From NCBI GenBank assembly GCA_964291265.2, contig OZ219746.1, positions 32,001 through 96,000 of the forward strand: a DNA stretch of 64,000 bases, read 5' to 3'. Positions 7,599 through 63,232 of this stretch are shown here, piece by piece (within the stretch, counting starts at the first letter, position 1; every line of letters begins with the position of its first letter). Both the position numbers and the translations under genes were made by a program. A model generated the notes under the pieces. The model was given only the letters and a program-made list of their open reading frames with translations, ran no database searches and was not told where the DNA came from. The stretch comes from Alphaproteobacteria bacterium (GTDB taxonomy: Bacteria; Pseudomonadota; Alphaproteobacteria; SP197).

Positions 7599-8702
7599 CA
7601 ACACCTCCCAATGGTCCGGCTTCGTCCGGCGCAAAGACGCCTCCAGCATGGCCGGCGTCAGGCCCTTGTGCTCGGTCATGTAGCGCACAATATGGTGCTC
7701 GAAGTCGCTCCCTGCAAGCAGCCCGTCCATGATCACGTCGAGAAGATCGGGCGGTACCTCCTCGGCAAAGGCAAACCTGAGCGCCAGAAGAGCGGACCGC
7801 ACCTCGGGCGAGGTCGACGGCCGGTCCGGCGCCATCTCCCCGAGGTCGTGCACCACATAGGCGAACTCCCTGACGAACGACTTCAGCTTCTCGGGCGCGT
7901 CGATCATCTTCAGCACCGAGCGCGCCGCCTTCCAGCGCCCCCGGCCGTGATAGAAGACCAGGGGGATGATCGCCGGCAGCTTGATGTCGTTCCCGCCGCC
8001 CTCGCTCTTGCTCCGCTCGCTCTTGCTCCGCTCGATCTCGCGCCGCCAGATGTTGACCATGTATCCCAGGAGCTGGAGCGGCGTCGCGGCGTCGACGTAG
8101 CTCTTGTGTTCGAGCAGCACGTAGAGGCTTAGCATCTTTGCCGTCCTTCAATCTCACCCGGAACAGCGCATCGCACTGGGTGGTACGGGCGGCCTTGTCG
8201 ACGAAACTCTCCCCAACCGCCTCGAACGGCGCCTCGGGATCGAGGAGTTCAGCCACCTTCCGCGGCAGGTAGTCGGTGAGCAGAGAAGCGGCACGGGACG
8301 GTTCGGAGACCAGTGCCCGGAACAGCGTATCGTGTCGATTCACCGGAAGTCTCACCGAGCGAGACCCCGGCGTTTCAACGGGCATCGTGCTCACGGGTTG
8401 GAAGGGGGAAGGTGTTCGTCATGGCGGCACCCTACGCCGAACAGCACCAGGGCGGCAATCGCGGCGCCTGACCCGGGGTGAGGCCTGCCAGACGTCAAGA
8501 CCTCGATGGCGCTTGTTCCTCAGGTCGCCGCCATGCCCGTACTTCACTCGGGTGGCCTCAGCCCAAGCTATGGCCCCTCCCTATGCTGGGTTGTGGAACT
8601 GATAGAAGACCAGTGATCACCCGCGATTTTGGCAACAAACTTCAAGGTCACCAACCCGCCCTCGTCCCCGCCTTCGATACCTCAAGACCGCTTCGCTGCC
8701 TG

Positions 8703-8833
8703 CCGAAGCCATAGTGGCAGGAAAGGACGCCCGGGAGACCTCATGCACGATGACCTGCAAGCGTCCGGTCTTGCCCCGGTATTCGCTCGGCACTCTCTCA
8801 GGCGCCGTCATCCCCTGATGAGCGAACGCTTAC
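8703..8833 (+). repeat. 131-bp IS right-end repeat, copy 2
   Basis: Similar to 7001-7131 and followed directly by the target duplication GGATCATC. Confidence 0.85.
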
Positions 8834-10957: not shown

Positions 10958-12963
10958 ATGAAGATTGCAGCCCTGTACGCGCGGGTCTCGGGCGAGCAGC
11001 AAAGGGATAGCAACACGATCGCCAGCCAGACCGAGGCCTTGGTTGCCTACGCCGAACGCCATGGCTACTGCGTGGCGCCCGACATGGTCATCGAGGATGA
11101 CGGCTACGGCTATACCGGCGCGGTTCTCGAACGCCCGGGGCTGGAGCGTGTCAGGGACCTTGCCGCGGAGGGGCGCATCGAGGCCGTCCTGGTCCATGCC
11201 CCGGATCGCTTGAGCCGCCGCTATGCCTATCAGGTTCTGATCATCGAGGAGCTGGCCCGCCAGGGCGTTGAGACCGTGTTCCTGAACGCGCCGTCGATGG
11301 AAACCCCAGAAGACCATCTCCTCGTCCAGTTCCAGGGAATGATCGCGGAATACGAGCGGGCGCAGATTCTGGAGCGTTCCCGTCGCGGCAAGCGTCATCG
11401 GGCGCGACGCGGCGAGGTCGCCGTCCTCGCCGGCGCACCCTATGGCTACCGCTACCACAAGAAAACCCAGGACAGCGACGCTTTCTACGAAATCTCCGAA
11501 CCGCAGACGTCCGTGGTTCGCGACATCTACCGCCATTACACCGAAGATCACGTCAGCATCGGCGCGATCGCTCGCACACTCAACGAGCGCGGTGTCCCCA
11601 CGTCTTCCGGGCGCTCGCGCTGGGAACGCTCGGTGGCATGGGCGATCCTGCGGAATCCGGCGTACAAGGGAAGGGCGTGCTTCGGCAATACCCGGGTGGC
11701 GCCGCGCCGCAGCGTGCGGCCTCTGCGCCGCCGCGACGGGTTCGCCGACAGCAACACTGCCGGTCACGAACGGCCGCGGAAGGCTGGATCGAGATCCCGG
11801 TGCCGGCGATCGTCAGCGAAGAGACCTTCGCCCTCGCCGAAGAACGGCCGCAACGCAACAAGGTCTTCTCCAAACAGTCATGAACGTCGGCGTGCCTGCT
11901 TACCCCGCGCCATGAAACGTGAGCCTGTTGTGGCCGTTGGACAAGTGCGTTGATCCGGCGTATTGGTGCACGATCATGCGAGCAGGTGGAGGTGGGTGAC
12001 GAGGACGCTTGTATTTCGACGATGTCCTGACGCCTGAACGAACCAGACCCTTGATGGCCATAGACGCGGGGTAGCCGGAAAGGTCCAAGGTTCGTCAACA
12101 GGCGTCAGCCAGAACCACCACACGGCGGTCAGGCATGCGCCTGACCGACAGGTCGCTCGCGCCCTGTTCAACAAAAGGCGTCGCAGGGATCAGAAATGTT
12201 TCACAGCAAGCGTAGGACCAAAACACCCAGCGTCTCGCAGGGGCTCGTGGCGTGCGGCAAATGCGGCTACGCGCTGTATCGCACGTCGGCCCGAACCACT
12301 GCCCGCAAGATCTCCTACTACCGCTGCCTGGGTTCCGACGCCTGGCGCCATCTCAACGGCCCTCTGTGCAACAGCCGTCCCGTGCGCCAGGATCTGCTCG
12401 ATGACATCGTATGGACCGAGCTGGTCCGCTTGCTCGAAGATCCGGCGCTCGTGAAAGCAGAGATCGACCGACGACTGGAGGCAGCCCGTGTCTCCGATCC
12501 AAGCCAGTAGCGCGAGGCCGACCTTCGGCATCGGCTGATCAGGGTCCGCAAGGCCATCGACCGCCTCGTCACGGCCTATCAGGAGGAGTTGATCACCATC
12601 GACGAGTTGCGCAACAGAACGCCCGAGCTCCGCCGTCAGGAACAAGCGCTGCATCGCGAACTGCAATCCACTGTCGATCGCGCCAAGGATCGAGAGACTT
12701 ATCTTCGGCTCGCCGAGACTCTGACCGGCTTTCTGGCGCGGCTGCATTCGTCAGCCGAAACTCTGGACATCGCCGAACGGCAGCGTATCGCCCGGCTCCT
12801 CGTGAAGGAGATACTTGTCACCGAGGACAAAATCACTATCCGCCATTCCATCCCGATCTCGGGCTCGCCGGGCGCGGACCCGTCGAAACCCGACAACGGC
12901 GGAACCGAAGGCGAGAGTTACCTTTCGCGTTCAGGGCGTCGTGGCGCCGCCATGCTTCAATGA
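10958..12963 (+). pseudogene. Large serine recombinase (resolvase + recombinase + Zn ribbon), disrupted
   Basis: YARVS, ERPGL, DRLSR, GAPYGY, ILRNPAYKG, CGKCG...YYRC; frameshift near 11775, insertion 11874-12206, in-frame TAG at 12508-12510. Confidence 0.9.
11874..12206. mobile_element. 333-bp non-coding structured insertion of unknown family
   Basis: Splits FSK/RRTK of the recombinase; CAA at both junctions; stems 12027-12044/12089-12108 and 12126-12147. Confidence 0.65.
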
Positions 12964-16889: not shown

Positions 16890-17206
16890 CGTCTCCCGCT
16901 CCGCATGACCTGGGGAGCCATGCGGCCGATCGCGTTAGGCGGAGACGAAGCCCGGCAACTTCCGGAGCGGGAACGTTGCCGCCTTGCCAAGCCCGTCGGA
17001 TCGGTCATGATTCCCGTTCGCAGATGGAGGGGAAGGGATGATGCGGGTCCTGTCGGACGATAGGAGCGGGACGCTCAACGATCCGGTGCCGATTGAATGG
17101 CGTTTCCCTGGACCGGGCGCCGGGATTCCGGCCGACTCCCCGCCTGTCGGACGCGATCTGTGTGGAATTGTCGCCGGACAGGCCGCATCCGGGTCGGGAG
17201 GCGGCC

Positions 17207-19282
17207 ATGTCTCGTGATCCCCGTTACGACATTCTCTTCGAACCCGTGCAAATCGGGCCCGTTACGGCGAGGAACCGCTTCTATCAGGTGCCCCACTGCA
17301 ACGGCATGGGGCGCACCTTTCCGTCCAGCATGGCGGCAATGCGCGGCGTCAAGGCCGAGGGCGGCTGGGCCGTGGTCTCGACCGAACAGATCGACATCCA
17401 CCCCTCGACCGACATCACCGGCGCAACCGAGGGGCGGCTGTGGTCGGATCAGGACATCCCCTACCTCGCACGCATGTGCGATGCCGTCCACGAACACGGC
17501 TCCCTCGCGCTGATCGAATTGACCCACAACGGCAAGTTCGCACCGGCGTCCTACAGCCGCGAGGTGCCGCTCTTTCCGTCCCACATGCCCGTGGTCGGCA
17601 ACGCGCCGGTGCAGGCCCGCGCCATGGACAGGACCGACATCAGGAACTACCGGCGCTGGCATCTGGACGCCGTGAAGCGCGCCAGAAGGGCCGGTTTCGA
17701 CATCGTCTGCTGCTATGCCGCCCACAACCTCTCGCTCGCCGGCCAGTTCATGCAGCCGCGTTACAACCGCCGCACCGACGAGTACGGCGGCAGTCTGGAG
17801 AACCGTGTCCGCCTTTTCCGAGAAATCATCGAGGACGCCAAGGAGGCGGTTGGCGACACGATGGGCGTGGTGGCGCGCTTCGCCGTCGACGAAAGGCGCG
17901 GTGGCGAAGGCATGGAATTCGACAAGGAAGGGCGCGAGGTTGTCGAGATGCTGGCCGAACTGCCCGATCTCTGGGACGTCAACGTGGCCGAGTGGGAGAA
18001 CGACAGCATCACCAGCCGTTTCGCGGACGAGGGATTCCAGGAACCCTTCATCTCCTTCGTCAAGCAGGTCACCACCAGGCCCGTGGTGGCCGTCGGCCGC
18101 TACACCACGCCCGACCGCATGGTTTCGCTCGTGAAGAACGGCATGCTCGACATGATCGGTGCGGCCCGCCCGTCGATCGCCGATCCCTTCATGCCGAAGA
18201 AGATCGAGGAGGGCAGGATCGAGGATCTCCGGGAGTGCATCGGCTGCAACATCTGCGTGGGCTGGGACCACATGCAGTCGCCCATGCGCTGCACCCAGAA
18301 CCCGACCAAGGGCGAGGAGTGGCGCAAGGGCTGGCATCCGGAGCGCATCCCGCACAAGTCGGGAGACGACGAGGTGCTCGTCATCGGCGCGGGGCCCGCG
18401 GGTCTCGAGGCGGCGCTCGCGGCCGGCCAGCGCGGCTACGATGTCACGCTGGCCGAAGCGGAGGAGGAACTGGGCGGCCGTGTCTCCCGCGAAAGTCGCC
18501 TGCCGGGACTCTCCGCCTGGGGCCGGGTGCGCGACTACCGGGTGCACCAGATCCGGCAGTTGGCCAACGTCGAAGTCTATCCCGCCAGCCATCTGACGGC
18601 CGGACAGGTGCTCGAGTTCGGCGCTGACCGCATCGCTGTGGCGACCGGCGCACGCTGGCGCAGGGACGCCTTCGGCCGGACCCACCAGTTCCCGATTCCC
18701 GGCGTCGAGGAAGCGTGCGTGCTCACGCCCGACGACGTCATGTCAGGTGCGGCGCCCGAGGGCCCTGTCCTCGTCTACGACGACGACCACTACTACATGG
18801 GCGGCGTGCTCGCCGAGAAGCTGCGCGGCGACGGGCTTGAGGTGACGCTGGCGACACCCGATCCCGTCGTGTCGTCGTGGACTACCCTGACCCTGGAGCA
18901 GCACCGCATTCAGGCGCGCCTGATCGAGCTTGGCGTCGGCATCGAGGTCAACGCCAGGCTCGCTTCCATCGGCGACGGCGTCGCGGCGCTTGCTTGCGTC
19001 TTCACCGGACGCCGCCGCGAGGTTGCTGCCGCGACGGTCTTGATGGTGACGTCACGCCTGCCCCATGATGCGCTCTATCGCGAACTGGCCGGCGACCCGC
19101 AACGGCTGAGCGACGCCGGCATCGCCTCTCTCCAGCGCATCGGCGACTGTCACGGTCCCGCGACCATCGCTGCGGCTGTCTACGAGGGCCACCGCTTCGC
19201 CCGGGAACTGGGCGCGGAGCCCGGGGAAATCCCCTTCAAGCGGGAACTGACGGAACTGGCAGCGGAGTTCGCGCTACCCTGA
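17207..19282 (+). CDS. Trimethylamine/dimethylamine/histamine dehydrogenase family flavoprotein (FMN, 4Fe-4S)
   Basis: NRFYQVPHCNG, CIGCNIC-x11-C cluster motif, IGAGPAGLE; GGAGG RBS. Confidence 0.9.
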   Translation: MSRDPRYDILFEPVQIGPVTARNRFYQVPHCNGMGRTFPSSMAAMRGVKAEGGWAVVSTEQIDIHPSTDITGATEGRLWSDQDIPYLARMCDAVHEHGSLALIELTHNGKFAPASYSREVPLFPSHMPVVGNAPVQARAMDRTDIRNYRRWHLDAVKRARRAGFDIVCCYAAHNLSLAGQFMQPRYNRRTDEYGGSLENRVRLFREIIEDAKEAVGDTMGVVARFAVDERRGGEGMEFDKEGREVVEMLAELPDLWDVNVAEWENDSITSRFADEGFQEPFISFVKQVTTRPVVAVGRYTTPDRMVSLVKNGMLDMIGAARPSIADPFMPKKIEEGRIEDLRECIGCNICVGWDHMQSPMRCTQNPTKGEEWRKGWHPERIPHKSGDDEVLVIGAGPAGLEAALAAGQRGYDVTLAEAEEELGGRVSRESRLPGLSAWGRVRDYRVHQIRQLANVEVYPASHLTAGQVLEFGADRIAVATGARWRRDAFGRTHQFPIPGVEEACVLTPDDVMSGAAPEGPVLVYDDDHYYMGGVLAEKLRGDGLEVTLATPDPVVSSWTTLTLEQHRIQARLIELGVGIEVNARLASIGDGVAALACVFTGRRREVAAATVLMVTSRLPHDALYRELAGDPQRLSDAGIASLQRIGDCHGPATIAAAVYEGHRFARELGAEPGEIPFKRELTELAAEFALP

Positions 19283-19499: not shown

Positions 19500-19892
19500 C
19501 ACGATCCTGGCATCGTCGAGGTTGAAGGCGACCGCGCCGATGCTGCGCCGGCGTAAGGTCGAGCACCTCGCCGCGGCGGCAGCCGGTGAGGGCGAGCGGG
19601 CGGATGGCGGCGAGGCCTCTGGCCATCAGGCTTCGCTGGCGTCGCCAGCTGTCAGCGTGTCCGCGGCGATGAACCGGGCAACCTTCTTCGCCGGGTTCCT
19701 TGCGATACCGGGGCAGGGGTTTGAGCGGCGCTCGCGCAATGCCTCTTCCGTGGCGCGGAACATCATTGCACACAATGTCTCGAAGGACCGGTTGGCCGCG
19801 CCGGGCCTGTCCCTGCCCGCCGCATCGAACCACGTGTCCACCTTCTCGGGTTCGACCCGGTCCAGCAGGCATCCTGCCGAAGGCGGGGATCC
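19500..19892 (-). pseudogene. Tyrosine integrase remnant, interrupted by the IS21 element (upstream part continues at about 25214-25275)
   Basis: WFDAAGRDRPGAANRSF, LALTGCRRGEVLDL; multiple frameshifts. Confidence 0.7.
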
Positions 19893-19960
19893 TGTTGATG
19901 GCTGCATAGAACGGCGGGATTTCGGCGATTTGCCGCGCTTTGTCAGGGTCGTGTTTCTTC

Positions 19961-19999
19961 CCTGTTGTCAGGTCCTATTGTCACGTCCTGTTGTCGTGG
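19961..19999 (+). repeat. Three tandem 13-bp repeats near the left end
   Basis: CCTGTTGTCAGGT CCTATTGTCACGT CCTGTTGTCGTGG. Confidence 0.7.
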
Positions 20000-20316
20000 T
20001 TTGAGTGTTCGGCTGGTTGTCTCCCCGAGCGCCGCCGTCTTTTCCTATTGTCGTTTTGGTCCGGTTCGGGTTCCGTCGACCTCTGCTTCGGTCTTGGTGA
20101 CGGTTGCCGGGAGGGTTCCGGTTCCGAGGCACTCGCGGGATTGTTTGTCTTCCCTGTGGGCGGGTCGCGTTGTCCGGTCCCGGGGCGGCGTCTTTGCCGC
20201 CGCCCCGGGTGGATGCTAGATCGGCATCAAGAGAAAGAGCGATGCGATGCCGGGCGGAGTTGTGACGCCCCCCGGCGCAGCACCCGGACGAGCCGGTCAC
20301 GGGGGACCGAACTCCC

Positions 20317-20847
20317 GTGTATTGTCGAGCCATTTTGCGTCCGGGTCCACCCCCGCTCTCGAGACGGACGGTGTGCACGACAGGACGACTGTTCAACTGC
20401 AGGCGGTGTCAGCGGCAGGTTGTTCTCTGCCGGTCGTGTGACCGGGGGCATGTGTATTGCTCCAAGGAGTGCAGGGAGCGGTCCCGGATCGAGCGGCGCC
20501 GCGCGTCGCGTCGTCGCTACCAGAGCACGCTGAAGGGCCGTGAGACGGGCCGTCACCGCCAGCGGCGTTACCGGCTCCGCAAGGCGGAGGAGGCGCGTGC
20601 GTTGAAGGCCAGGGCGGCGATGGTTGCCGAGATCATGGGCACGCAGACGTCTGCTGTGGTGCTGCTTGGCGACGTTCCGGCGGTGTCTGGAGACGCCGGT
20701 TCTGAAGAAATCGTTACGGACCACCCTTCCCGACTGCTGCCGACCTCCCTACCTGCGGTTGTGAAGGCGCAAGAGCGACGCGAATCGCCGCTTCGGTGCG
20801 CCCGGTGCGGACGGGTCGTGACGCATGTGGTGCTGAGGGACCTGTGA
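20317..20847 (+). CDS. Cys-rich putative zinc-finger protein upstream of istA (start uncertain)
   Basis: CRRC...CRSCDRGHVYCSKEC, an Arg-rich helix, C-terminal CARC. Confidence 0.6.
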   Translation: MYCRAILRPGPPPLSRRTVCTTGRLFNCRRCQRQVVLCRSCDRGHVYCSKECRERSRIERRRASRRRYQSTLKGRETGRHRQRRYRLRKAEEARALKARAAMVAEIMGTQTSAVVLLGDVPAVSGDAGSEEIVTDHPSRLLPTSLPAVVKAQERRESPLRCARCGRVVTHVVLRDL

Positions 20848-20879
20848 TGCGGCGTTGAGGAACCAAAGGGAGGGAGTTC

Positions 20880-22373
20880 ATGGCGATCGACGAGGACACG
20901 CGGGCGACGATCGTGCGGCTGTCGCGGGCCGAGGGCTGGGCTGTGGGGACGATTGCCCGGCATCTCGGCGTGCACCACGGCACGGTGACGCGGGCGCTCA
21001 AGGCGTCGGGGCAGGAGCGGCGGCCGCGGGCCAAGCTCATCGACCCCTTCGTTGCCTTCCTCGGGGAGCGTCTTGAGGCGTCGCCGGACCTTCCGGCCAG
21101 CACGCTCTGGCGACAGGTCGTGGCTCTGGGCTACCGCGGCGGCGAGGATCACTTCCGTCACGACCTGCGCCGCCTCGGGCTGAGGCCGGTGAAGAGGCCC
21201 GAGCCGTCGCTGCGGCTGAGCTTCCTTCCGGGCGAGCAGGCGCAGGTTGACTGGGCCGAGTTCGGGAAGGTCCGCATCGGCCGGGCGGAGCGCAGGCTCA
21301 TGGGGCTTCTCGTCACCCTCAGCTACTCGCGCCAGACTGTCCTGAGCCTGTTCCACGACGCGCGGATGGCCAGCTTCCTGCAAGGCCATGTCGAGGCTTT
21401 CGCGGCATTCGGGGGTGTGCCGCGGAGGCTTCTGTACGACAACCTGAAGAGTGCCGTGGTGACGCGCCGCGGCAAGGCGGTCACCTATCATCCGATGCTG
21501 CTCGGCCTTGCGGCCCACTATGCCTTCGAACCGAGCGCCGCCTGGCCCAGGAGCCCGCAGGAGAAGGGCCGCGTGGAACGCCGTGTGCGCTTCGCGCGCA
21601 CCGGGTTCTTCGCCGGGCGCGACATCACGGTCCCGCTCGGCGAGCTCAACGCCGCAGTTCGGGAGTGGTGCTTCGGCGCCGCCGCGGAGCGGCCCTGGCC
21701 GGACGACGACAGTCTCCTGGTGCGGGACGCCTTCGCCCGGGAGAGGGAGCACCTGATCGTCCTTCCCGTCGACCCCTTCCCGCATCACGAGGTCCGCCCG
21801 GTGCGCATCGACAAGACCTGCCACGCCCGCTTCGACACCAACGACTACAGCGTTCCGGGTAGCTTCTCCAAGGCCCTGCTGACGCTGGTCGCCGACCGCG
21901 ACGAGGTTCGCATCCTCGACGGCGCCGACGAGGTCGCGCGCCACCGACGCTCCTACGACAGGAAGCAGGCCGTCACCGATCCGGAGCATGCCAGGGCGAT
22001 CGCCGCGGGCAAGCGGCGGGCCCGCTCCATGAGCGTCCGCGACCGGGTCCTGCGCACCGTGCCGCGGGCCGAGGAGATGCTGGCGCGCGCCGGGACCAAC
22101 GGGCGCAACGTGGCCTCCTGCGCCCGGATGCTGGAGACGCTTCTCAACGCGCACGGCGCCGACGCTCTCGACCGGGCTGTCGCCACGGCGCTGGAGCGCG
22201 GCTCGTGCCACCCCGAAACCGTGCGCGTCATCATCGAGGAGCGCCGCCGGGAGCAGGGCCTGCCGCCCCTCAGCATCGCCGACGACGGCCGCGGCGGCCG
22301 TGGCACGACGCCGCGGGGGACCGCTCTCGACGCCTACGACAGGCCCGAAGCCAGCGCCAGGAACAAGACATGA
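20880..22373 (+). CDS. istA: IS21-family DDE transposase
   Basis: PGEQAQVDW, LLYDNLKS, PQEKGRVER; N-terminal HTH. Confidence 0.95.
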   Translation: MAIDEDTRATIVRLSRAEGWAVGTIARHLGVHHGTVTRALKASGQERRPRAKLIDPFVAFLGERLEASPDLPASTLWRQVVALGYRGGEDHFRHDLRRLGLRPVKRPEPSLRLSFLPGEQAQVDWAEFGKVRIGRAERRLMGLLVTLSYSRQTVLSLFHDARMASFLQGHVEAFAAFGGVPRRLLYDNLKSAVVTRRGKAVTYHPMLLGLAAHYAFEPSAAWPRSPQEKGRVERRVRFARTGFFAGRDITVPLGELNAAVREWCFGAAAERPWPDDDSLLVRDAFAREREHLIVLPVDPFPHHEVRPVRIDKTCHARFDTNDYSVPGSFSKALLTLVADRDEVRILDGADEVARHRRSYDRKQAVTDPEHARAIAAGKRRARSMSVRDRVLRTVPRAEEMLARAGTNGRNVASCARMLETLLNAHGADALDRAVATALERGSCHPETVRVIIEERRREQGLPPLSIADDGRGGRGTTPRGTALDAYDRPEASARNKT

Positions 22374-23071
22374 GCGAGCTCAGGGAGCGTGCCCGGGCGC
22401 TCGGCCTCCACGGGCTCGTCGAACGCTGGGACGAGGTCGCCGGGACCGCATGGATCGAGGAGGTGGTCAGCGGCGAGGAACAGGCCCGCAGGGCCCGCAG
22501 CCACGAGCGCCGCCGCGCCGCGGCGCGGCTGCCCGCCTTCAAGCCCCTGGCGGACTTCGACTGGACATGGCCGCGCGACATCAGCCGGGCTCATGTCGAA
22601 GCGCTCCTCGGCCTCGGCTTCGTCGACCGTGCGGACAACGCCGTGCTCGTCGGCGGGCAGGGCACCGGAAAGACCATGATCGCCGCCAACGTGGCTCACC
22701 AGGCCCTGCTGCACGGCCACACCGTCCGCTTCGAGAAGGCGCCGGAACTGCTCGAGGCACTCGCCGAGACCGTCTCGCGCAGCGAGCTGCGCCGCCGCCT
22801 CGCGATCCTCGCCAGGCCCCGCCTGCTCGTCCTCGACGAAATCGGCTACGTGACCCTCGAAAGCCACCATGCCGACATCCTCTACGCCATCGTCTCGCGG
22901 CGCTATCAGCGCCGCTCGACCATGGTCACGACAAGCCTCGCCTTCGCCCAGTGGGACCGCGTCTTCCCCAGCGCCTCCGGCATCGCCGGCACCGTCGACC
23001 GGCTCATGCACGACGCAACCCTCATCTCCATCGACAGCGACTCCTGGCGGCTCAGGCGTGAAACCCGATAA
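22370..23071 (+). CDS. istB: IS21 helper ATPase
   Basis: GGQGTGKT Walker A, LLVLDEIGY Walker B, DRLMH; ATGA overlap with istA. Confidence 0.95.
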   Translation: MSELRERARALGLHGLVERWDEVAGTAWIEEVVSGEEQARRARSHERRRAAARLPAFKPLADFDWTWPRDISRAHVEALLGLGFVDRADNAVLVGGQGTGKTMIAANVAHQALLHGHTVRFEKAPELLEALAETVSRSELRRRLAILARPRLLVLDEIGYVTLESHHADILYAIVSRRYQRRSTMVTTSLAFAQWDRVFPSASGIAGTVDRLMHDATLISIDSDSWRLRRETR

Positions 23072-23951
23072 ACCCCGCCGCGTCGACTTCGACGCCGTCA
23101 AGCGCATGCCGTTCGAACGCATCGCCGCCGACTGGGGATACGTCCGCGACGAACAGGCCTCGACACGCGCCAACCCCGTCCTGTGCGCACCCGGCCTGCC
23201 GAAGCTCGTCACGAAGTGCCTCAACAACGGACACTGGGTCTACTTCAACACCCAGAACGATGAAGACAACGGAACCGTCATCGACTTCATGCTCAACCGC
23301 GGACTGGCCTTCGCCGACATCTGCACCCGCTTCGCAGCACCCGACGCCGCGCCACGCGACTTCCGCAGCCTCTGGGCCGCGGCAACGCCCGATGCGGCCC
23401 CGGACTGGCTCACCGGGCGCGGCATCCTCCCGGAGACCCTCGACACCTGCCGCCCCCTGGTCCGCCGCGACCACAACGGACGCGTCCTCTTCGCCCATCG
23501 CAACAGGAAGCGAAAGCTCACCGGCTTCGAGATCGGTCCCCCCGACGGACCGAAACGCTTCGCCACCGGTGGAACCCGAAGCCTGTTCGCCGTCCGCGCC
23601 GGAACCGCCGCGGACCTCGAGGCCCTCGTCATCACCGAAAGCGCCGTCGACGCCCTCAGCCTGGCCCAGATCGACCAATGTCCCCCCAGCCACGCCTTCC
23701 TCTCCACCGCCGGGGCACCCTCGCGAAGACAGCACGAACAGATCAGCCTCGCCGCAAGCAGCCTGCCCAACGTCAGGACCATCGTCCTCGCCCAGGACCA
23801 CGACGAGGCCGGAGAGCGACAGGCCGAAACCCTGCGCAAAAAGATGAAGCTCCCCTCCCACGTCTCGTTCCACAGACGCAGACCGCCGGAAAACGCCGAC
23901 TGGAACGACGTCGTCAACGCCAGGACCAAAGAACCACAAGCGAGATCATGA
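23058..23951 (+). CDS. Toprim-domain (primase-like, DUF3991/Toprim_2-like) protein
   Basis: DNGTVIDF, WLTGRGI, LVITESAVDALS, VLAQDHDEAG, DWND; GTG start overlaps the istB end. Confidence 0.8.
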   Translation: MKPDKPRRVDFDAVKRMPFERIAADWGYVRDEQASTRANPVLCAPGLPKLVTKCLNNGHWVYFNTQNDEDNGTVIDFMLNRGLAFADICTRFAAPDAAPRDFRSLWAAATPDAAPDWLTGRGILPETLDTCRPLVRRDHNGRVLFAHRNRKRKLTGFEIGPPDGPKRFATGGTRSLFAVRAGTAADLEALVITESAVDALSLAQIDQCPPSHAFLSTAGAPSRRQHEQISLAASSLPNVRTIVLAQDHDEAGERQAETLRKKMKLPSHVSFHRRRPPENADWNDVVNARTKEPQARS

Positions 23952-23977
23952 CCACGTCCGTCACAAGGAGACCACTC

Positions 23978-24268
23978 ATGCCCCTCACGCCCGCCGAAAA
24001 GCAGCGGCGATACCGGGAACGGCGCAAGGCCGGCATCCCTCCCGTCCACACCCCAAAGCATCGTGACCGGCGCTCGCGACCGCAACGCTGGAACGACGCC
24101 GTGGCCGAACTGCGCGCCCTGCAGGACGAATGGCGTGACCGCCTCGACAGCATCCCCGAAAGCCTCCGTGACACGCCTTACGGAGAACGCCTGCAGAGCG
24201 TCGCCGATGCCGACATCGAGGCCCTCGAGGACATCGAACCGCCACGCGGCTACGGAAGGGATACGTGA
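23978..24268 (+). CDS. Small basic hypothetical protein
   Basis: MPLTPAEKQRRYRERRK...PPRGYGRD; AAGGAG RBS. Confidence 0.65.
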   Translation: MPLTPAEKQRRYRERRKAGIPPVHTPKHRDRRSRPQRWNDAVAELRALQDEWRDRLDSIPESLRDTPYGERLQSVADADIEALEDIEPPRGYGRDT

Positions 24269-24839
24269 TCCCGCAAGACCCTTGAACGCGGTCACGCGTT
24301 ACCATCCAGGAATGAGAACGTCTCACCCCGACGCGCTTCTCAGCCTCCCCGGGGAAACCCCCGGGCCGTCCAAACGACACCGCATCACGAGACTGCCGCA
24401 GCCGCTGGCCGGACTGGCTTACAGGTCGCAGCATCCGCCCGAAAACACTCGACGCCTGCCGCACCCTGCAGGACGAATGGCGTGACCGCCTCGACAGCAT
24501 CCCCGAAAGCCTCCGTGACACGCCTTACGGAGAACGCCTGCAGAGCGTCGCCGATGCCGACATCGAGGCCCTCGAGGACATCGAACCGCCACGCGGCTAC
24601 GGAAGGGATACGTGATCCCGCAAGACCCTTGAACGCGGTCACGCGTTACCATCCAGGAATGAGAACGTCTCACCCCGACGCGCCTCTCAGCCTCCCCGGG
24701 AAACACCCGGGCCGTCCAAACGACACCGCATCACGAGACTGCCGCAGCCGCTGAGCCGCAGCAACGCCCGATCCGCCGCCGGACTGGCTCACAGGTCGCA
24801 GCATCCGCCCGAAAACACTCGACGCCTGCCGCACCCTGC
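24117..24839 (+). repeat. Tandem duplication with 347-bp period
   Basis: 24117-24463 is repeated nearly identically from 24464; the second copy has an extra segment of about 23 bp. Confidence 0.9.
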
Positions 24840-25388
24840 GCCGCCGCAACCGCAACGCACGCAGCCTCTTCGCCCAGCGCAACAGAAACCGTCAGCTCTC
24901 CAGCCTCGAGATCGTCCCGCCCGACGAACCACGACGAGGACGGAGAACGCCAGAACGAAACCACGCGCAAAAGCCTGAAGCTCCCCTCCCACATCACGTT
25001 CCACAAACGCCGAACGCCAGAAAACGCCGACCGGAACGACATCGTCAACGTCAATGCAAGACCAATGGGATCCAACAATAGGCAGAAAACAAAGACCGGG
25101 CGGACCTTCGTCCAATGCCGCACGTTCTCCTGTCGTGGTCACCCACTCACACGATCAGCGCCCAAAAGAGCGGTTCTCCGCCAATATCCCGCCGTTCTAA
25201 ATCGCCGCCGACAGATCCTCGGCCCTGAGCCAGAGGCGCATGGTAAGCGCCCGGAGGGCTTCCGGTGCGGTTCGCTTACGCTGCAGATGTGCGTGTCCGC
25301 CGGAGCGCCTCAGGACATTCTGCCGGACGCCTTTGCCCTGCCAGGTCAACCCGGGTTAGCCTCTCCCGGGTCCGGAAGGGAAGATGTC

Positions 25389-26714
25389 ATGGTGATGCGC
25401 AGCAACAAGGCCCGGAAGGCCGATCTCGAAAGGGCCGTGGCGGAGTCGTTTTCCAGGTATGCGGCGCGCAATCCGCGAAGCCGGGAGGAGGACCTGAAGG
25501 CCGCGGACCACTTGCCGGGCGGCAACACCCGCACGGTGATCTTCCATCCTCCCTTTCCACTGACCATCGCCCGGGGTGAAGGCCAGTATGTCGAGGACAT
25601 CGATCATCACCGATACGCGAACTTTGTCGGCGAGTTCGGCGCCGGACTCTTCGGTCATTCCGATCCCGACATCGCCGGCGCCATAGGACGCGCGGTCTCG
25701 GACGGGTGGGTGCTCGGTGGTCCCAACCGCTACGAGCGCATCCTCGCCGCCGAACTCGTCCATCGCTTTCCTTCCATCGACAGGATCCGGTTCACCAACT
25801 CGGGCACCGAGGCCAACTTGATGGCCATCAGCATATCCCGGGTGGTTTCCGGCCGGTCGAAGGTGATGGTGTTCGAGGGCGCCTACCATGGAGGCGTCTT
25901 CCTGTTCGGCCACGGCGGGTCCCCCATGAACGCCCCCTTCGACTATGTCATGGCGCCCTTCAACAACGCACCAGCGACCGTCGATCTTGTCGAACGCCAC
26001 GCCGATGAGCTGGCCTGTGTCGTCATCGAGCCGATGCAGGGATCGGGCGGCATGATCCCCGCAGACAGGAGTTTCCTCGCGGCATTGCGGGAAGTCACCA
26101 GCCGTCACGGCATCATCCTCATCTTTGACGAGGTCGTGACAAGCCGCCTCTCGGGCGGTGGGCTCCAGGAGGTCCTCGGCGTGACGCCCGACATGACAAC
26201 CCTGGGCAAGTACATCGGCGGTGGCGCCGCCTTTGGCGCCTTCGGTGGCCGCGCCGACATCATGGCGCGTTTCGATCCGCGGTCGCCGCAGGCGGTGGCC
26301 CATGCCGGCACCTTCAACAACAACGTCATCACCCACGCCGCCGGGGCGACGGCGATGACGCGAATCTACACGCCTGACGTCGCCGGGACCTTCAATGCCC
26401 GGGGCGACGCGTTCCGCGAGGACCTGAACGCCATCATCGCTCGCCATCGTTTGCCCATGGTGGTGACCGGCCTCGGCTCCGTCATGCAGATCCACTGTTG
26501 CGAAGGACCGTTGAGGGACGAACACGATGCCGCGAGGGACGACGAGCTCAAGTCGCGACTCCTCTTCCACGAACTCCTCGCCCGGGGCCAGCGCATGACC
26601 TGGCGCAATTCACTGCTTCTGTGTCTGCCCATGACCGATGACGACCTCGAGGCCTTCTGCGCGGCCTTCGGCGACGTTCTCGGCGAACACGGTCATCTCT
26701 TCGCCATGGACTGA
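25389..26714 (+). CDS. Class III aminotransferase (glutamate-1-semialdehyde aminomutase-like)
   Basis: PGGNTR, FTNSGTEA, YHG, LIFDEV, TLGKYIGGG, HAGTFNNN. Confidence 0.9.
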   Translation: MVMRSNKARKADLERAVAESFSRYAARNPRSREEDLKAADHLPGGNTRTVIFHPPFPLTIARGEGQYVEDIDHHRYANFVGEFGAGLFGHSDPDIAGAIGRAVSDGWVLGGPNRYERILAAELVHRFPSIDRIRFTNSGTEANLMAISISRVVSGRSKVMVFEGAYHGGVFLFGHGGSPMNAPFDYVMAPFNNAPATVDLVERHADELACVVIEPMQGSGGMIPADRSFLAALREVTSRHGIILIFDEVVTSRLSGGGLQEVLGVTPDMTTLGKYIGGGAAFGAFGGRADIMARFDPRSPQAVAHAGTFNNNVITHAAGATAMTRIYTPDVAGTFNARGDAFREDLNAIIARHRLPMVVTGLGSVMQIHCCEGPLRDEHDAARDDELKSRLLFHELLARGQRMTWRNSLLLCLPMTDDDLEAFCAAFGDVLGEHGHLFAMD

Positions 26715-26738
26715 TCCTCAACCCGCTGGATCAGGAGC

Positions 26739-27989
26739 TTAAGCGCCGTCGAGGTAGTCGAAGGCGGAGAGAGCGTGGCTGCGGATGACGTGGAAGAAAT
26801 CGTCGAGCGGAACGTGCTCGTCGCGCTGGCCCATGCCGGTGGGGAAGGGACCGTAGACATAGGCATCGATACCCCGATAGCGCCACAGCCTCGCATCGGT
26901 TCCGCCGAGGCTGACGATGGGTTGGGGCCGGAATCCCGCCAGGGCCTCGACGTTGTCCTGGAGAATGCCGACCATGGCTCCATGGGGGTCGCACCATGAG
27001 GGGGCCATGTAGTTCTGTTCCTCCATCGTCACCTGAGGCCAGCGCGTCAGGACCTTCTCCACGACACTCTGAACGGTCTCCCTGTCGCCGCCGACAGGCA
27101 GGCGGAAGTCGGCCTCGATCGTCGCCGCACCGGGAATCACGTTGACCTTGAGACCGGATTCGATGACGCCGATATTGCACGTGACCTTCTGGATGATGGC
27201 ATGGGCTCCCTCTCCCATGGCCCGGTCGAGGGTGTCGCGCGCCTCCTCGATGGCACGGCCGATGTTGTGGGGAGGATCGACATGAATGGCATCGACCGAA
27301 GCCCGAAGATCCCGGCAGAAATCCATCGCCACCAGGCTGGCACTGTCGCCGGCATGGGTGTAGGCGCCGTGTGCGCCCGTGGTCGTGACACGGAACGTCA
27401 CCCACCACGGTCCCTTCTCGGCGAAGCGGATGGAGTAGGGACTCGATGGCTCGCCGTTGAGGCAGCAGTCACCGTGGACTTCCGGGTGGCGTTCGATCAG
27501 ATGGCGCGCACCCCAGGGACCGAATGTCTCCTCGTCGGAGACGCAGGTCAGGGTGAGGCGGCCGTTGAGATGCTCGCGAAGCCTGGAGAGGTACATGTAG
27601 GTGAAGATCGATGCAGAGGTGCCGCACTTCATGTCCGCGGAGCCGCGGCCCCACACGGCGCCGTCCTCGATGGCGCCCGACCAGGGAGACCCGTGGGTCC
27701 ATGGTTCGGGCGCCGCAGGAAACACGTCAATGTGACCGTTGAGCACAAGGTGGCGCCCGTCGCCGGAGCCATCGAAGCTGGCGACGACATTCGGGAACAT
27801 CGGTTCCGGGTCGATCACCCGGTGCGCCAGGCCGTGCTCGTCCAGAAAGCGTCGGATGTGCGCCACCGCCTTGCGTGTGTCGCCGGGCGGATTGGGCGTC
27901 GGCGTGGCGACGAAGTCGCTGAAGAAGCCCTCCAGCGTCCGTCGGTCTTCCTCGATCCAGTCGAGCAGTTGCTGTTTGAGATCGGCCAT
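26739..27989 (-). CDS. M20 family metallo-hydrolase (ArgE/DapE-like)
   Basis: LNGHIDVFP, GRGSADMK, SDEE, GGTDAR, DEH. Confidence 0.9.
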   Translation of the reverse strand: MADLKQQLLDWIEEDRRTLEGFFSDFVATPTPNPPGDTRKAVAHIRRFLDEHGLAHRVIDPEPMFPNVVASFDGSGDGRHLVLNGHIDVFPAAPEPWTHGSPWSGAIEDGAVWGRGSADMKCGTSASIFTYMYLSRLREHLNGRLTLTCVSDEETFGPWGARHLIERHPEVHGDCCLNGEPSSPYSIRFAEKGPWWVTFRVTTTGAHGAYTHAGDSASLVAMDFCRDLRASVDAIHVDPPHNIGRAIEEARDTLDRAMGEGAHAIIQKVTCNIGVIESGLKVNVIPGAATIEADFRLPVGGDRETVQSVVEKVLTRWPQVTMEEQNYMAPSWCDPHGAMVGILQDNVEALAGFRPQPIVSLGGTDARLWRYRGIDAYVYGPFPTGMGQRDEHVPLDDFFHVIRSHALSAFDYLDGA

Positions 27990-29026
27990 CAGTGTCTCCT
28001 TGGTCTGTTTCCGGCCGCTGTTCTGGCGACATCGAACAGTGTCCGCCGGCAGATGGTGGTGTCAGGCATGCCGGGCAGTCGGCATCGTGCCTCGGCATCG
28101 AAGAGGTAATCGCGGGCACGGCGGACGAGAGGCGCATTCCACCGCCGGCCCGCGGCCTTCAACGCGTTCTCGGCGCGGAAATGAAGCACGCGCGCCGAGT
28201 TCATGGCTTGGGCCTCGTTGACGCCCCGCTCCTTCAGTGCGAGGACGAGCTCAAGCTGGGTCAGGTGGCGGCGCACCGCGGCAAGGATGATGGTGGGTTC
28301 TTCCCGGTTGGCCAGTGCCCTCTCGAGACAGCGGTCGAGGTCGTCGAGATTCCCGGACGAAACGCTGTAGGCGATGCGGTCCAGGGAGAGGAAGGAACTG
28401 TCGGCCACCACGTTTTCGACATCGTTGGCCGTTGCCCTCTGGCCCGTCCCCACGTAGAGGGCGAGCTTGGCAATCTCGTTGCGGGTCTGCATCCGGTCGC
28501 CTCCCAGACAGGATTCGAGGAGGCGCCTGGCGTCGCCGTCAGCGGTGATGCCCTGCCTGGAGAGCTCGTCGGCGATCACCGACTCGAGCACCCGTCCCTC
28601 GTCACGATAGCACGCCAGGGCGGCGGCATCCTTCGCTCTCTCGAAGGTCGAGCGCAGTTTCGAGCGGGCGGCGAGTTCGCCGGCCTCGACGAGGATCAGG
28701 GTATCGCCAGTCGGCAGTTTCATGACCTCTGCCATGGTCGTGGCGAAACCGTCCGCCGCGCCGCGCACCCTGACGACCCTGCGCCCACCGGTCATGGAGA
28801 GCGACACCGCTTCCTCCCTGAGTCGTGCCGGATCCCTTGCTGCCTCGTCACCGGTCAGGTCGCAGACCCGGAATGGATCACGGGGATCATCGACCACGCC
28901 GCCGAGCAGGAGATTGCTGCGTTCCCTGACAAGTCCCTGGTCCGCCCCGTGGATCAGCACCGCCCTGATGGCATGGCCCGGAGCGCGGCAGAAGCCTTCG
29001 ATCTCGCGCGCCGGGATCTTCACCAT
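27989..29026 (-). CDS. holA: DNA polymerase III subunit delta
   Basis: LIHGADQGLVRER, CYRDE, LGGDRMQTRNEIAKLALY; synteny with lptE and leuS. Confidence 0.92.
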   Translation of the reverse strand: MVKIPAREIEGFCRAPGHAIRAVLIHGADQGLVRERSNLLLGGVVDDPRDPFRVCDLTGDEAARDPARLREEAVSLSMTGGRRVVRVRGAADGFATTMAEVMKLPTGDTLILVEAGELAARSKLRSTFERAKDAAALACYRDEGRVLESVIADELSRQGITADGDARRLLESCLGGDRMQTRNEIAKLALYVGTGQRATANDVENVVADSSFLSLDRIAYSVSSGNLDDLDRCLERALANREEPTIILAAVRRHLTQLELVLALKERGVNEAQAMNSARVLHFRAENALKAAGRRWNAPLVRRARDYLFDAEARCRLPGMPDTTICRRTLFDVARTAAGNRPRRH

Positions 29027-29088
29027 CCGCCAGGTATCCGGCACAGGCGCCGCGCAAGCGGGGAGGACCGCTGCACGTCGGTCATGAC

Positions 29089-34810: not shown

Positions 34811-35409
34811 TGGCTGGTGCGGCTCCGGTCTCTCTCAACGATCTGCCGACAGACAAGAGGCTGATCAAACGGTCCGCCGCACCTGCGGTGCCAATCAACT
34901 GATACAACATGCCCGATTCCTCTCGTTTCGGCTTGTCGTCTCCCCGATGTCACAGAACACCGAAGGAACCATGGCGACAACGCACCTCATCCAGCACCGG
35001 GTCGACGCGCTCAAGCGGGGGAAGGTCATCTCTGGATGGGGTGCGATACCGAACTGAAGGGCCTTGGCATCCGCATCATGCCCTCGGGCACGAGGCGCCG
35101 CTTCATTCACTCCCGGCACGAGGGCTAAGAGGATCTGGAAGACCTTCGACGATGCCGGCGCCGTGCAGGAACGGCAACCTGGCGGGCCTGTTGGATCGAG
35201 AGGGACGCACTCTTCGAGGCCGGCGCACGGGAAGTCCACCACGAACAGCTCTGGAAGCCTCGTACCCTCGAGGTCAACCGGCACCATCTTCGCAGACAGA
35301 TCCTGCCCTTCTTCGCTGGCCGCATGATCAGCGCCATGCAAGGCAGAACGTCGCAGCATGGTTCCGTTCTCTCCATGCAACACCGGTGGCGGCAAACCGA
35401 TCTGCGCCG

Positions 35410-37774
35410 GTAACTGCTCACCCCCCGCTGATCATGGATCGTTTCCTGGCGGCGTTCGGGTCCGGGCATCTTCTCTTGTCACCATCACTCGCCGAGCGTC
35501 GGGTGCCGGTTGGCAGGAACCGGTCCGGTCTTCGGCCCTTTCCGGCCCGTGGCGACAGGGCCGAACGGCTCACGGCTCAAGATGCCTTCCGGCCTCCGGC
35601 ACCGTTCCGCGGCATGGGCGTCCAGCTGAACGGCCCCGGAGTCATGTTCTCCCCGGTCGTATCCGGCCCTTGCTCATGGACAGGCAGGCGGATAGTTTGT
35701 CCGTGCGTTCGTCGCGGCCGTTCCGGGACATTCGGGGCCACGACAGGGAAGGTTCTCCGCACCCCACCCGGCCGCGGTTTCCGGCGCCGCGAAGGGAGAG
35801 ATCAATGACCCGCCGCCGTCTTCCGATCGGGATCCAGGGCTTTCCGACGATCCGGAACGAGGACTTCTACTATGTCGACAAGACATCGCTGGTCCGGCGG
35901 CTGGTGGACGAGGGGCGCCATTACTTCCTGTCCCGTCCGCGCCGCTTCGGCAAGAGCCTGCTGCTCGACACCCTGCGATCGCTGTTTGCCTGCCGCGAAC
36001 CCCTGTTCAGGGGACTGGCCATCCACCCCCACTGGGACTGGTCAACGCCCCATCCGGTGGTGCGGCTGAGCTTCGGCGGGAAATACAACGAACCCGGCGA
36101 GATCGAAGAGGACATCATCGTGCAACTGGACGGCGTGGAGCGCGAGCACGGTCTCCCGCCTGCCCGGATCTCCTATACCGGCCCGAGACGTCTGCGGGAC
36201 CTTCTCGACCGCCTGCACGACGCCACTGGCCGACAGGTCGTGGTGCTGGTGGACGAGTACGACAAGCCGATCCTCGACGCGCTCCACGATCCGGAGCTTG
36301 CGACGACCAACCGGGACTACCTGCGCGGCTTCTACGGCATCGTCAAGGACAGCGACGAGCATGTCCGCTTCGTCTTCGTCACCGGTGTCAGCATGTTCTC
36401 GAAGGTCAGCCTGTTCTCGGGACTCAACAATCTGAAGGACATCAGCCTCGATCCGCGCTTTGGCACGATCTGCGGCTACCGCGAGGAGGACCTGGACCGT
36501 GTGTTCGGCCCCGAAATGGCCGGGCTGGACCGCGAGGAGATCCGCACCTGGTACAACGGTTACCACTGGCGAGGCGGGGAGCGGGTCTACAATCCCTATG
36601 ACGTGCTCCTGCTGCTCGACAGTCGCGAGTTCCGCCCCTACTGGTTCGAGACGGGATCTGCGAATTTCCTGTTCCGGATGCTGATGGAGAAGTCGGTGAG
36701 TCCGATGGAACTGGAGGGGCGGCTGGCGGACACGTCGCTGGTCTCGAAGTTCGATGTCGGCGACATCGACATCGAGGCGCTGCTCTTCCAGACCGGCTAC
36801 CTGACCATCGCCGGGGAGGAAAGGCAGGACCACAGGACCCTCTACCGTCTGGACTATCCCAACCTCGAGGTCCGGATCAGCCTCAATGACGGACTGCTTG
36901 CCTGGCTGGGCAAGAAGGGGGGCGAGCCACTGGAGCGGGGCCGCGAGTTCTGCGCACTGCTGGAGGCGAACGACTTCGCGAGCTTCGGCGAGAAGCTCCG
37001 CGCCTGGCTCGCGGGCATACCCTATCAGTGGCATGCCAGGGGCGACCTGGCGCGCTACGAGGCCTGGTATGCGAGCCTTCTCTACATGTGCCTGCGTGCG
37101 GCCGGGGTGGGCTTGAGCGTGGAGGAGGCCTCGCATCGCGGCCGTGCGGACATGGTGGTGCGTCTCGGCGGGCAGATCTTCGTGCTGGAGTTCAAGATGG
37201 CCGACGGCGAGGAGGACGGCGCCGCCGCGCTGGATGCGGCCATGACGCAGATGCGCCAGCGAGGCTATGCGGAGACCTACCGCGACCACGACGGCTCGGT
37301 TCACCTGATCGGCGTGGCCTGCGGGCGCGAGGCGCGCAACCTCCTCGATATCCGCGCCGAGACCGCATGAACTCAGAGCCATGCAGGAATCCGGATGCGT
37401 CGACGGAACTCGACCGCGCCGACCGATCAAGAAGCCGGTGCTCCGTTGAGACCCCCGTTCGTCCAACGAATTGCCGACGCCGGTGATCCGTGCGGCGACC
37501 GTCCGGACCCTTTCAAGGAGACACGACGGACGATTCCCGGCTCGAACGCATGAGCAGCCGACGGAACCGGCACCGTCGGCTGAGGGTTTCGGGACCGCGC
37601 TGCAGACCATCACGCCACGGGACAACAAGGGGCCTGAAGACCGGACCGGTTCTTGCCAACCGGGGCCCGCACATCCGGTTCCCGGCAACGGACCCGTGAA
37701 GGTGACGAAAGAAGGTGCCTGACCCGAACGTCCTCGAGAAAAGGCGATCAAGGATCACCCGGGTGAGCAGTTAC
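35410..37774. mobile_element. Non-autonomous transposon with IS66-type ends carrying an AAA-ATPase/nuclease gene
   Basis: Perfect 14-bp TIR GTAACTGCTCACCC/GGGTGAGCAGTTAC; 8-bp target duplication CTGCGCCG (35402-35409, 37775-37782); about 200-bp degenerate inverted arms. Confidence 0.85.
35805..37370 (+). CDS. AAA-ATPase-like + PD-(D/E)XK nuclease protein, copy 1
   Basis: LPIGIQ.F, YYVDKT, SRPRRFGKSL, LVDEYDKP, GRADM...VLEFK. Confidence 0.92.
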   Translation: MTRRRLPIGIQGFPTIRNEDFYYVDKTSLVRRLVDEGRHYFLSRPRRFGKSLLLDTLRSLFACREPLFRGLAIHPHWDWSTPHPVVRLSFGGKYNEPGEIEEDIIVQLDGVEREHGLPPARISYTGPRRLRDLLDRLHDATGRQVVVLVDEYDKPILDALHDPELATTNRDYLRGFYGIVKDSDEHVRFVFVTGVSMFSKVSLFSGLNNLKDISLDPRFGTICGYREEDLDRVFGPEMAGLDREEIRTWYNGYHWRGGERVYNPYDVLLLLDSREFRPYWFETGSANFLFRMLMEKSVSPMELEGRLADTSLVSKFDVGDIDIEALLFQTGYLTIAGEERQDHRTLYRLDYPNLEVRISLNDGLLAWLGKKGGEPLERGREFCALLEANDFASFGEKLRAWLAGIPYQWHARGDLARYEAWYASLLYMCLRAAGVGLSVEEASHRGRADMVVRLGGQIFVLEFKMADGEEDGAAALDAAMTQMRQRGYAETYRDHDGSVHLIGVACGREARNLLDIRAETA

Positions 37775-38079
37775 CTGCGCCGGTCCTTTTCCTCACCATG
37801 CAGAAGGCCGAAGAACAGCAGCCACTGCTTCGGCTCGCTGCCGCTACCGCGAGACCAGGCGCGAACGGTTCCTCCTGCCGGAGGAGTTCCGCAGTCTTGC
37901 AGCGGTCCTGGCACGCCACCAGGCAAGGCGTCCCCTGCACACGGTCCTCTCTCGTTCATGATCGAGGCCATGGGTGCTTTCGACGAGCCGCGCGGAGCGA
38001 CGCAGCAGCTGACGGGAGGTGGCGACCGGCCTGTGTCTGGCGCCAGCGGCCTTGTCATGCGAGGCGACTGACTGGCGGT

Positions 38080-63014: not shown

Positions 63015-63232
63015 TCCATTCCGGATCCTTGCACCGAACCATACCCGGCCGATGCGGTCGTCCCGTGCGTCGCGGCTTCACCACGCTGTCCGGGGCCTTT
63101 CAACTGGGACGGATCCTCCGGGCGCTCCATTTCCGGGGTGACTCCTGGCGATTCGCGGCGGCATCAGGGATCTTGTAGCCGGGAATCCGGACGCCGGGCG
63201 AGCGGCTGGTGTTCCCGCTCCCGGCAGGCTTC

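Follow-up and report, generated by a model that had tools for sequence, protein, structure and literature searches.

Structure of the IS21-family element

The window analysed here, a stretch of 64,000 nucleotides (64 kb) of an alphaproteobacterial genome (GenBank assembly GCA_964291265.2, contig OZ219746.1, positions 32,001 to 96,000), contains an insertion sequence (IS) element of the IS21 family, 5,321 bp in length and extending from 19893 (TG) to 25213 (CA), in which the transposition genes istA and istB are followed by a gene for a DUF3991/Toprim protein of primase fold (hereafter toprim). The inheritance of this gene together with the transposase and its probable function are the subject of the present analysis. 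The features of the element and its insertion site are as follows (ORF, open reading frame; aa, amino acids):

19525..19856, minus strand: tyrosine-integrase remnant, frameshifted, outside the element at the insertion site (tblastn 34-48% identity, E 8e-7)
19888..19892, no strand: left copy of the target-site duplication GATCC (empty site present in read contigs)
19893..19937, plus strand: left terminal inverted repeat (TG...), agreeing with the right end at 30 of 45 nt
20371..20847, plus strand: Zn-finger protein, about 158 aa (open frame from 20317; 8 invariant Cys in 69 homologs)
20880..22373, plus strand: istA, DDE transposase, 497 aa (NF033546, 222 bits, cut-off 160)
22370..23071, plus strand: istB, AAA+ ATPase, 233 aa (PF01695, E 7e-50)
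23058..23951, plus strand: toprim, DUF3991/Toprim primase-fold protein, 297 aa (GTG start, 14-nt overlap with the istB stop)
23978..24268, plus strand: small basic ORF, 96 aa (passenger; 27 of 30 copies carry it undamaged)
24375..25053, plus strand: internal duplicates (3' part of the small gene and decayed toprim pieces)
25169..25213, minus strand: right terminal inverted repeat (...CA), agreeing with the left end at 30 of 45 nt
25214..25218, no strand: right copy of the target-site duplication GATCC, matching the left copy

The GATCC duplication directly abuts both ends of the element (19888-19892 and 25214-25218), whose terminal inverted repeats share a 14-nt perfect core within the first 45 nt. 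Contigs of the runs X2 and X3 fuse position 19887 to 25214 and omit 5,326 nt, i.e. the element plus one copy of the duplication; they thus represent the empty site and confirm both ends and the duplication, as given in the preliminary description of this DNA. The gene order reported there (Zn-finger gene, istA, istB, toprim, small ORF; all five on the plus strand) proved correct as well, with an overlap of 14 nt between istB and toprim and of 4 nt between istA and istB. By its conserved enzymes, ends and duplications the element is a genuine IS21-family transposon: residues D124, D187 and E233 of IstA are invariant across 70 homologs, IstB scores 170 bits against PF01695 (cut-off 24.1) and 191 bits against NF038214 (slightly below the cut-off of 200), and the elements of relatives possess the same TG...CA type of ends. 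As to internal direct repeats of the ends (L1/L2, R1/R2), an offset scan peaked at 9-10 of 22 matches with no clear period, and a loose 9-mer repeated 27 nt further in was recognised by eye. A composite transposon was ruled out, since a single istAB pair and a single pair of ends enclose every gene. The supposed splitting of an integrase pseudogene by the insertion is only partly borne out: the remnant is located in the left flank, and no integrase was matched on the right. Within the element, 24460-24758 is a copy of 24113-24411 (3' part of the small basic gene) at 98% identity, and two segments derive from toprim in decayed form, 24721-24930 with 81% and 24911-25053 with 83% identity.

Linkage, phylogeny and selection of the toprim gene

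A GTDB scan with toprim resulted in 52 loci, comprising 40 best (L001-L040) and 12 partial ones. istB is located directly upstream of toprim in all 40 best loci, and toprim follows istB in 40/40 istB matches of four other genomes (coordinates compared by eye; a fifth genome contained no istB match at that threshold), counts that overstate the linkage because kin elements are not independent. The conserved istA-istB-toprim synteny, which the preliminary description had put forward for checking, was thus found to hold; this order was seen in 12 genomes (in two of them with frameshifts), and related units elsewhere measure 4.0-4.7 kb versus 5.3 kb here. Among genomes of the same genus, elements with IstA at 67% and 49% identity retain toprim (59-64% identity); an absence of toprim from close IstA relatives, named beforehand as speaking against its involvement in transposition, was looked for and not encountered. 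Genome G820 of the genus holds a truncated Zn-finger gene-istA remnant without istB or toprim, and G823 an element with 47% IstA identity without toprim.

An outgroup of 84 loci with IstA at 41-50% identity (80 metagenome, 4 plasmid) served for comparison: toprim is present in none of the 84, only 65 of which reach at least 300 nt, and 19 at least 1,000 nt, past istB. In an IstA tree of 70 sequences (midpoint-rooted, no formal clade test) the toprim carriers, 10 in number, group together in a single clade (support 1.0), and the IstB sequences display an identity gap between 30 clusters at 64-100% and the next at no more than 55%. Judged from these sequence relationships, toprim was apparently gained once by this IS21 clade.

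The ratio of nonsynonymous to synonymous substitution rates (dN/dS) over 7 lineages, estimated by the Nei-Gojobori method on GC-rich DNA from pairs that are not independent, is 0.37 for toprim (95% confidence interval 0.29-0.46), 0.35 for istA and 0.31 for istB; for the Zn-finger gene it is 0.34 in the N-terminal half and 0.60 in the whole gene. The dS values of the three long genes are similar (0.40-0.48), the pairwise dN values of istA and toprim correlate (rho 0.91), and the trees of both genes share their topology, with the istB tree differing in one placement. By these ratios, toprim is under purifying selection equal to that on istA. In a second genome, 24 of 25 loci retain a complete toprim, and in the element of the window the surplus toprim pieces in the tail are decayed, the toprim gene itself being intact.

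Fold, active site and origin of the toprim protein

The toprim protein matches Pfam Toprim_2 (E 5e-13), its DUF3991 match being weak, and a profile built from 67 toprim homologs hits the primase domain of T7 gp4 (E 5.6e-10). Its structure model (predicted local distance difference test, pLDDT, 91) has DnaG (Aquifex, Bacillus, E. coli), T7 gp4 and Twinkle as top fold matches, and consists of an N-terminal domain and an RNA-polymerase domain of Toprim fold, as in primases of the DnaG/T7 gp4 type. The acidic residues E194, D198, D247, D249, D281 and D284 are all present in the protein of the element. Counted across 48 clusters of the clade, which spans 51-80% identity, conservation amounts to 45/46 for E194, 42/45 for D247, 43/43 for D249, 41/43 for D281 and 41/42 for D284. 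According to model and alignment, the toprim protein is of primase fold with conserved catalytic acids.

Distant toprim homologs of 25-38% identity, with the same Pfam domains and motifs, occur on 448 plasmids, 296 of them conjugative. A relaxase domain was detected in 9 of the 32 long homologs tested and a transposase domain in 0/32, so that the idea of long homologs being IstA fusions is unsupported; free-standing homologs adjoin relaxase, coupling-protein or RepA genes. Viral contigs yielded only distant toprims; the five loci checked among these 21 lacked IstA/IstB. The distribution of its sequence relatives suggests that the toprim gene derived from this relaxase-linked plasmid family. 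Relaxase-primases are known to synthesise the second strand once single-stranded DNA has been transferred; for DUF3991 proteins this function is putative.

The position behind istB in toprim-less relatives

The slot occupied by toprim was surveyed in those 69 outgroup loci whose istB is complete and is followed by at least 250 nt. Of the ORFs that begin at the istB stop, in most cases overlapping it by 4 nt, 55 are distinct (45-150 aa), and 46 of these constitute one family of 47-94 aa (~70 aa) with a conserved core, a variable linker and a C-terminal D-[DE]-[IP]-P-F. Altogether, a terminal F is present in 41 of the 55, PF in 32 and exactly D[DE]IPF in 7; as background, 6 of 4,734 long ORFs of the host genome end in PF. 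Examples of the tail-bearing gene are L060:3118-3324, L098:3185-3388 and L061:3963-4172, with ~40 further outgroup loci; an outgroup element with such a fourth gene is carried by the Alicycliphilus plasmid NC_014911. The family comprises 644 clusters, and 113 of the 120 best end in PF by a profile that itself included the tail; no Pfam match was obtained.

The ~70-aa family was not detected in 51 toprim-search loci (L001-L042 and nine others), while two control loci were recovered, nor in the host genome or in five toprim-element genomes; from these sequence searches, toprim and the tail gene appear to be mutually exclusive in one position. Passages of a published account (PMC5872125) describe the DDDIPF tail of SSB (a protein that binds single-stranded DNA) as binding DnaG, PriA, Pol III chi and ExoI. 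By its motif, the D-D-x-P-F tail of the ~70-aa protein would accordingly be predicted to recruit the DnaG or PriA of the host.

Unrelated small ORFs follow istB in some outgroup loci (L079:3442-3867, L102:3376-3735, L113:2753-3139, L115:3082-3474, L118, L122 and L141). Those of L079, L102, L113 and L115 had by eye been taken as replication-related; the Pfam matches (L113 to RepB_primase_C, E 0.025; L079 to HTH_36, E 0.16) are weak and were not used. On an Aromatoleum plasmid (L053:6570-6800) the end of an outgroup IS21 element adjoins a CRISPR-like repeat array with four repeats visible.

The same primase family in other transposons

Toprim genes of a lineage separate from that of the present element are carried by another IS21 type and by transposons with a DDE transposase and an ExeA-like ATPase:

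G000:C2:47062-52222 and copies, minus strand: 5,160-bp DDE/ExeA/AAA_25 transposon (relative at L212:5599-10531, minus strand)
L213:6747-10170, L215:6411-9834, L001:3110-6494 and L216: 3,424-bp IS21 type (67-72% variant in L216)

The former is a second multi-copy element of the host genome (4 full-length copies and partial ones, 5-bp duplications) with the gene order Cys-rich gene, DDE (rve), ExeA-like ATPase, AAA_25 and DUF3991/Toprim, and has a 73-85% relative in genome G401. Its AAA_25 gene is presumably helicase-like, and AAA_25 and toprim could possibly form a helicase-primase pair inside a transposon. The 3,424-bp element of G401 belongs to a different IS21 type (IstA 31%); a convergent toprim lies between its ends, and its duplications measure 7-8 bp. 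In G403 a DDE gene, an ExeA-like ATPase gene and toprim lie in a row at L214:5541-7905 with ends not defined; this array recurs, at least in part, at another place of that genome. Given the separate lineage, the primase family was captured by transposons at least twice.

Copies and activity in the host genome

The host genome assembly (4.8 Mb, 2 contigs) contains 30 full-length matches of the element with 98.1-100% identity, besides 47 left and 40 right ends, and the element family accounts for 4.0% of the genome. Duplications of 5-7 bp border 26 of the 30 copies (21 of 5 bp, 4 of 6 and 1 of 7), the four copies without duplication being in part pairings of nested ends; no target consensus is evident among the 30 insertions. 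Nested copies (G000:C2: 300111-308929, 4058043-4075257, 4144635-4152391, 4237410-4248078) have hit toprim, istA, istB and the Zn-finger gene of other copies, and these insertions of copies into copies give no sign of target immunity. All 30 copies have an intact istA, istB and Zn-finger gene, and 29 of them an intact toprim (the other bearing a private stop); toprim has the fewest variable sites among the element genes within the genome (6/894). The element is active, with ~30 or more recent insertions. The depth of the element in run X1 was ~30-70x that of the flank, which is not a copy number and was therefore not used.

Zn-finger gene, small basic gene and surroundings of the element

The Zn-finger gene, whose likely start is GTG 20371 by alignment with relatives, encodes a protein with the layout CxxC-x6-CxxC-x6-CxxxC, a long basic helix and a C-terminal CxxC. 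Its structure model (pLDDT 86) gave no significant fold match (best YacG, E 0.84), and sequence searches gave no family better than E 0.016 and no solved relative (best E 0.1); a likeness to the cysteine region of PriA was considered and dropped on account of the spacing. The gene is present in 75 of the 76 outgroup loci having enough upstream DNA. By its occurrence in these loci, the Zn-finger-istA-istB arrangement is an old and wide IS21 subgroup to which the Zn-finger gene is ancestral; the description of the element as an extended IS21 needs amendment in that this gene, which lies within the ends, is not particular to the toprim carriers.

The small basic gene also lies inside the ends, as previously claimed, and is a passenger, because it is found in the elements of only 2 of the 12 genomes, a stop is shared by 3 of the 30 copies, and a homolog of 78% identity is carried by an IS110 element that has four copies in this genome. 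Indeed, the stop common to the three copies indicates that this variant spread without the small gene in cis. In the genome pair concerned the dS of the small gene is ~1.2 versus 0.44 for istA; its protein had no plasmid match and only weak PHROG matches. The IS110 element with the homolog (1,978 bp; L255, G000:C2:2591488-2593465, and three copies) sits in IS66-like elements that also contain an ORF for a reverse transcriptase, judged by eye to resemble that of group II introns.

The genes flanking the element (17093-19282 and 25065-29044 of the window) looked ordinary by eye, including a trimethylamine-dehydrogenase-like flavoprotein, an aminotransferase, an M20-type peptidase and a DNA polymerase III delta-like gene. 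Other multi-copy repeats of the window (35640-37370, 61270-63060, 11870-12210, 7490-8830 and 63590-64000), with 2-10 genome matches each, are probably other insertion sequences; a second integrase remnant is located at 35045-35527 and 37842-37925.

Proposed role of the toprim protein in transposition

We propose, with about as much confidence as doubt, that the co-inherited gene of primase fold primes DNA synthesis, namely that of the second strand, in a replicative copy-out transposition. In passages of a preprint (bioRxiv 10.1101/2023.06.07.543989), IS21 is counted among the circle-forming families, for which a copy-out-paste-in route is presumed. Following the literature on circle-forming IS families, IstA would nick one strand and bridge the element ends, and the donor 3'-OH would prime synthesis of a circular copy; synthesis of a second strand on the displaced one would call for a further primer, which might be supplied by the element's primase, coming from a relaxase-linked plasmid family, before IstA/IstB insert the circle and generate the 5-bp duplication. 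Toprim-less relatives would use the ~70-aa protein, its SSB-like tail recruiting host DnaG or PriA, and the slot after istB would represent a replication-helper slot. The replication of IS911 reportedly depends on DnaG.

A wider reading, possible and somewhat less secure than the priming proposal itself, would be that a large IS21 branch reserves the post-istB slot for the start of DNA synthesis: most members would encode a mimic of the SSB tail that hijacks DnaG/PriA, the present clade would have swapped the tail for a primase of its own and become self-priming, and at least two other types of ATPase-using DDE transposons would have captured the primase family independently, one of them together with the helicase-like AAA_25.

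Several observations weigh against the priming proposal. The linkage counts are inflated by kinship, and only two of the 12 partial toprim loci have istB, the other ten being lone fragments that we read as remnants. According to passages of the same preprint (bioRxiv 10.1101/2023.06.07.543989), the 3'-OH of the first nick primes circle synthesis in copy-out, i.e. one strand is already primed, and passages on IS5376 (PMC10122671) report that purified IstA/IstB integrate pre-cleaved ends with 5-bp repeats. Right-end/left-end circle junctions, suggested as a check, appeared neither among the Logan contigs listed for 3 runs from one study, contigs which drop rare forms, nor in the genome assembly. 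The host genome retains priA and dnaG, so that toprim fills no gap, and encodes an SSB ending in DFDDGIPF; a host without priming/restart genes of its own was therefore rejected as an explanation. No conserved Zn-binding cysteine was found in the N-terminal domain across the 67 toprim homologs, for which reason the protein is classed as DUF3991-type primase-like and not as DnaG. Finally, D198 is replaced by N in 19/46 clade members versus 0/40 outer homologs, the lysine after GFEI in the plasmid homologs is G/A/S in the element clade, and conservation is higher in the N-terminal domain (0.81) than in the Toprim domain (0.73), which would also suit a binding role.

The last three points, together with an ancestral slot occupant that is a tail-bearing small protein and not an enzyme, would fit a non-catalytic transposition helper whose N-terminal domain, the most conserved part of toprim, binds single-stranded or bridged DNA or IstA/IstB, so as to recruit or protect with its priming function vestigial. 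This explanation appears unlikely, albeit the strongest of the alternatives: five acidic positions of the metal site are 93-100% conserved over 51-80% identity, which a purely structural role would not require.

Less probable still is that toprim aids the spread between cells by priming the second strand after single-stranded entry (conjugative mobilisation or uptake), in the manner supposed for its relaxase-linked ancestors. The relaxase linkage of the family and the 296 conjugative among the 448 homolog-bearing plasmids would agree with this, as would the patchy hosts: an IstA match was found in 5 of 22 same-genus genomes and in 1 of 400 others of a Paracoccaceae-centred sample, and one close IstB carries the label Deltaproteobacteria. 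However, none of the five ORFs of the element is a relaxase (oriT was not searched for), and no variant with a broken toprim has multiplied inside a genome, a test blurred by trans complementation.

Equally improbable is a plasmid-derived cargo captured once and kept by host benefit or linkage with no role in transposition: its plasmid origin, the swapping of passengers such as the small basic gene in genomes rich in mobile elements, and the wide occurrence of toprim-less relatives (0/84 loci with toprim) would be in line with it, but linkage alone would not yield a dN/dS of 0.37 or a conserved active site, the surplus pieces in the same element decayed to 81-83% with the gene intact, and the position behind istB is fixed, with independent captures by other ATPase-using DDE transposons. 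The earlier suggestion that toprim is not passive cargo is supported, as regards recent cargo, by its location behind istB in 40/40 istB matches of four other genomes, the tree topology and dN/dS shared with istA, the primase fold and the conserved acids.

Comparison with known systems

Prototype IS21 elements measure ~2-2.5 kb and consist of two genes; the present element adds a Zn-finger gene before istA and a primase-fold gene after istB. Like IS21 and IS5376, it possesses an IstA of DDE type, an overlapping AAA+ IstB and TG...CA repeats, and shares with them mostly 5-bp duplications and the lack of a clear target motif (for IS5376, passages of PMC10122671). The literature searched, which included few subscription papers and no ISfinder, contained no description of an IS21 element with a primase, zinc-finger or SSB-tail gene. 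While the element is of the known IS21 kind, the primase-fold gene in the post-istB slot would, within these searches, be new, its mechanism being proposed with doubt and confidence in balance. The replication of the bridged intermediate in circle-forming IS is poorly defined, and according to a review most such families only 'presumably' use the route; a primase and an SSB-tail peptide in the same slot, as two small deletable genes, make this replication step directly testable, and the element suggests a job for DUF3991 proteins.

The relaxase-linked DUF3991/Toprim proteins of plasmids and integrative and conjugative elements have the same Pfam domains, motifs and DnaG/T7-type fold, with RSF1010 MobA-RepB as the comparison case for a relaxase-linked primase. 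Unlike these, the toprim of the element is free-standing, coupled to istB, without relaxase and inherited with the transposase, and differs from the plasmid DUF3991 proteins in its changed GFEI-K and variable D198. The IS excision enhancer (IEE), a PrimPol-helicase, is likewise a primase-type protein proposed to act at copy-out replication; in contrast to toprim it is of archaeo-eukaryotic primase (AEP) fold, encoded outside the IS and promotes excision (passages of bioRxiv 10.1101/2023.06.07.543989). The outgroup fourth gene ends like the C-terminal tail of SSB (DDDIPF), i.e. in D-[DE]-[IP]-P-F after a variable linker; unlike in SSB, this tail sits on a ~70-aa transposon protein, is encoded outside the present window and has predicted binding only. 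Self-synthesising mobile elements, i.e. casposons, pipolins and Polintons, encode their own DNA-synthesis machinery. The present element resembles them in encoding part of such a machinery, and differs in that no polymerase family is found among its five ORFs and IstA/IstB carry out integration, so that priming is the only step of synthesis in which it could be autonomous.

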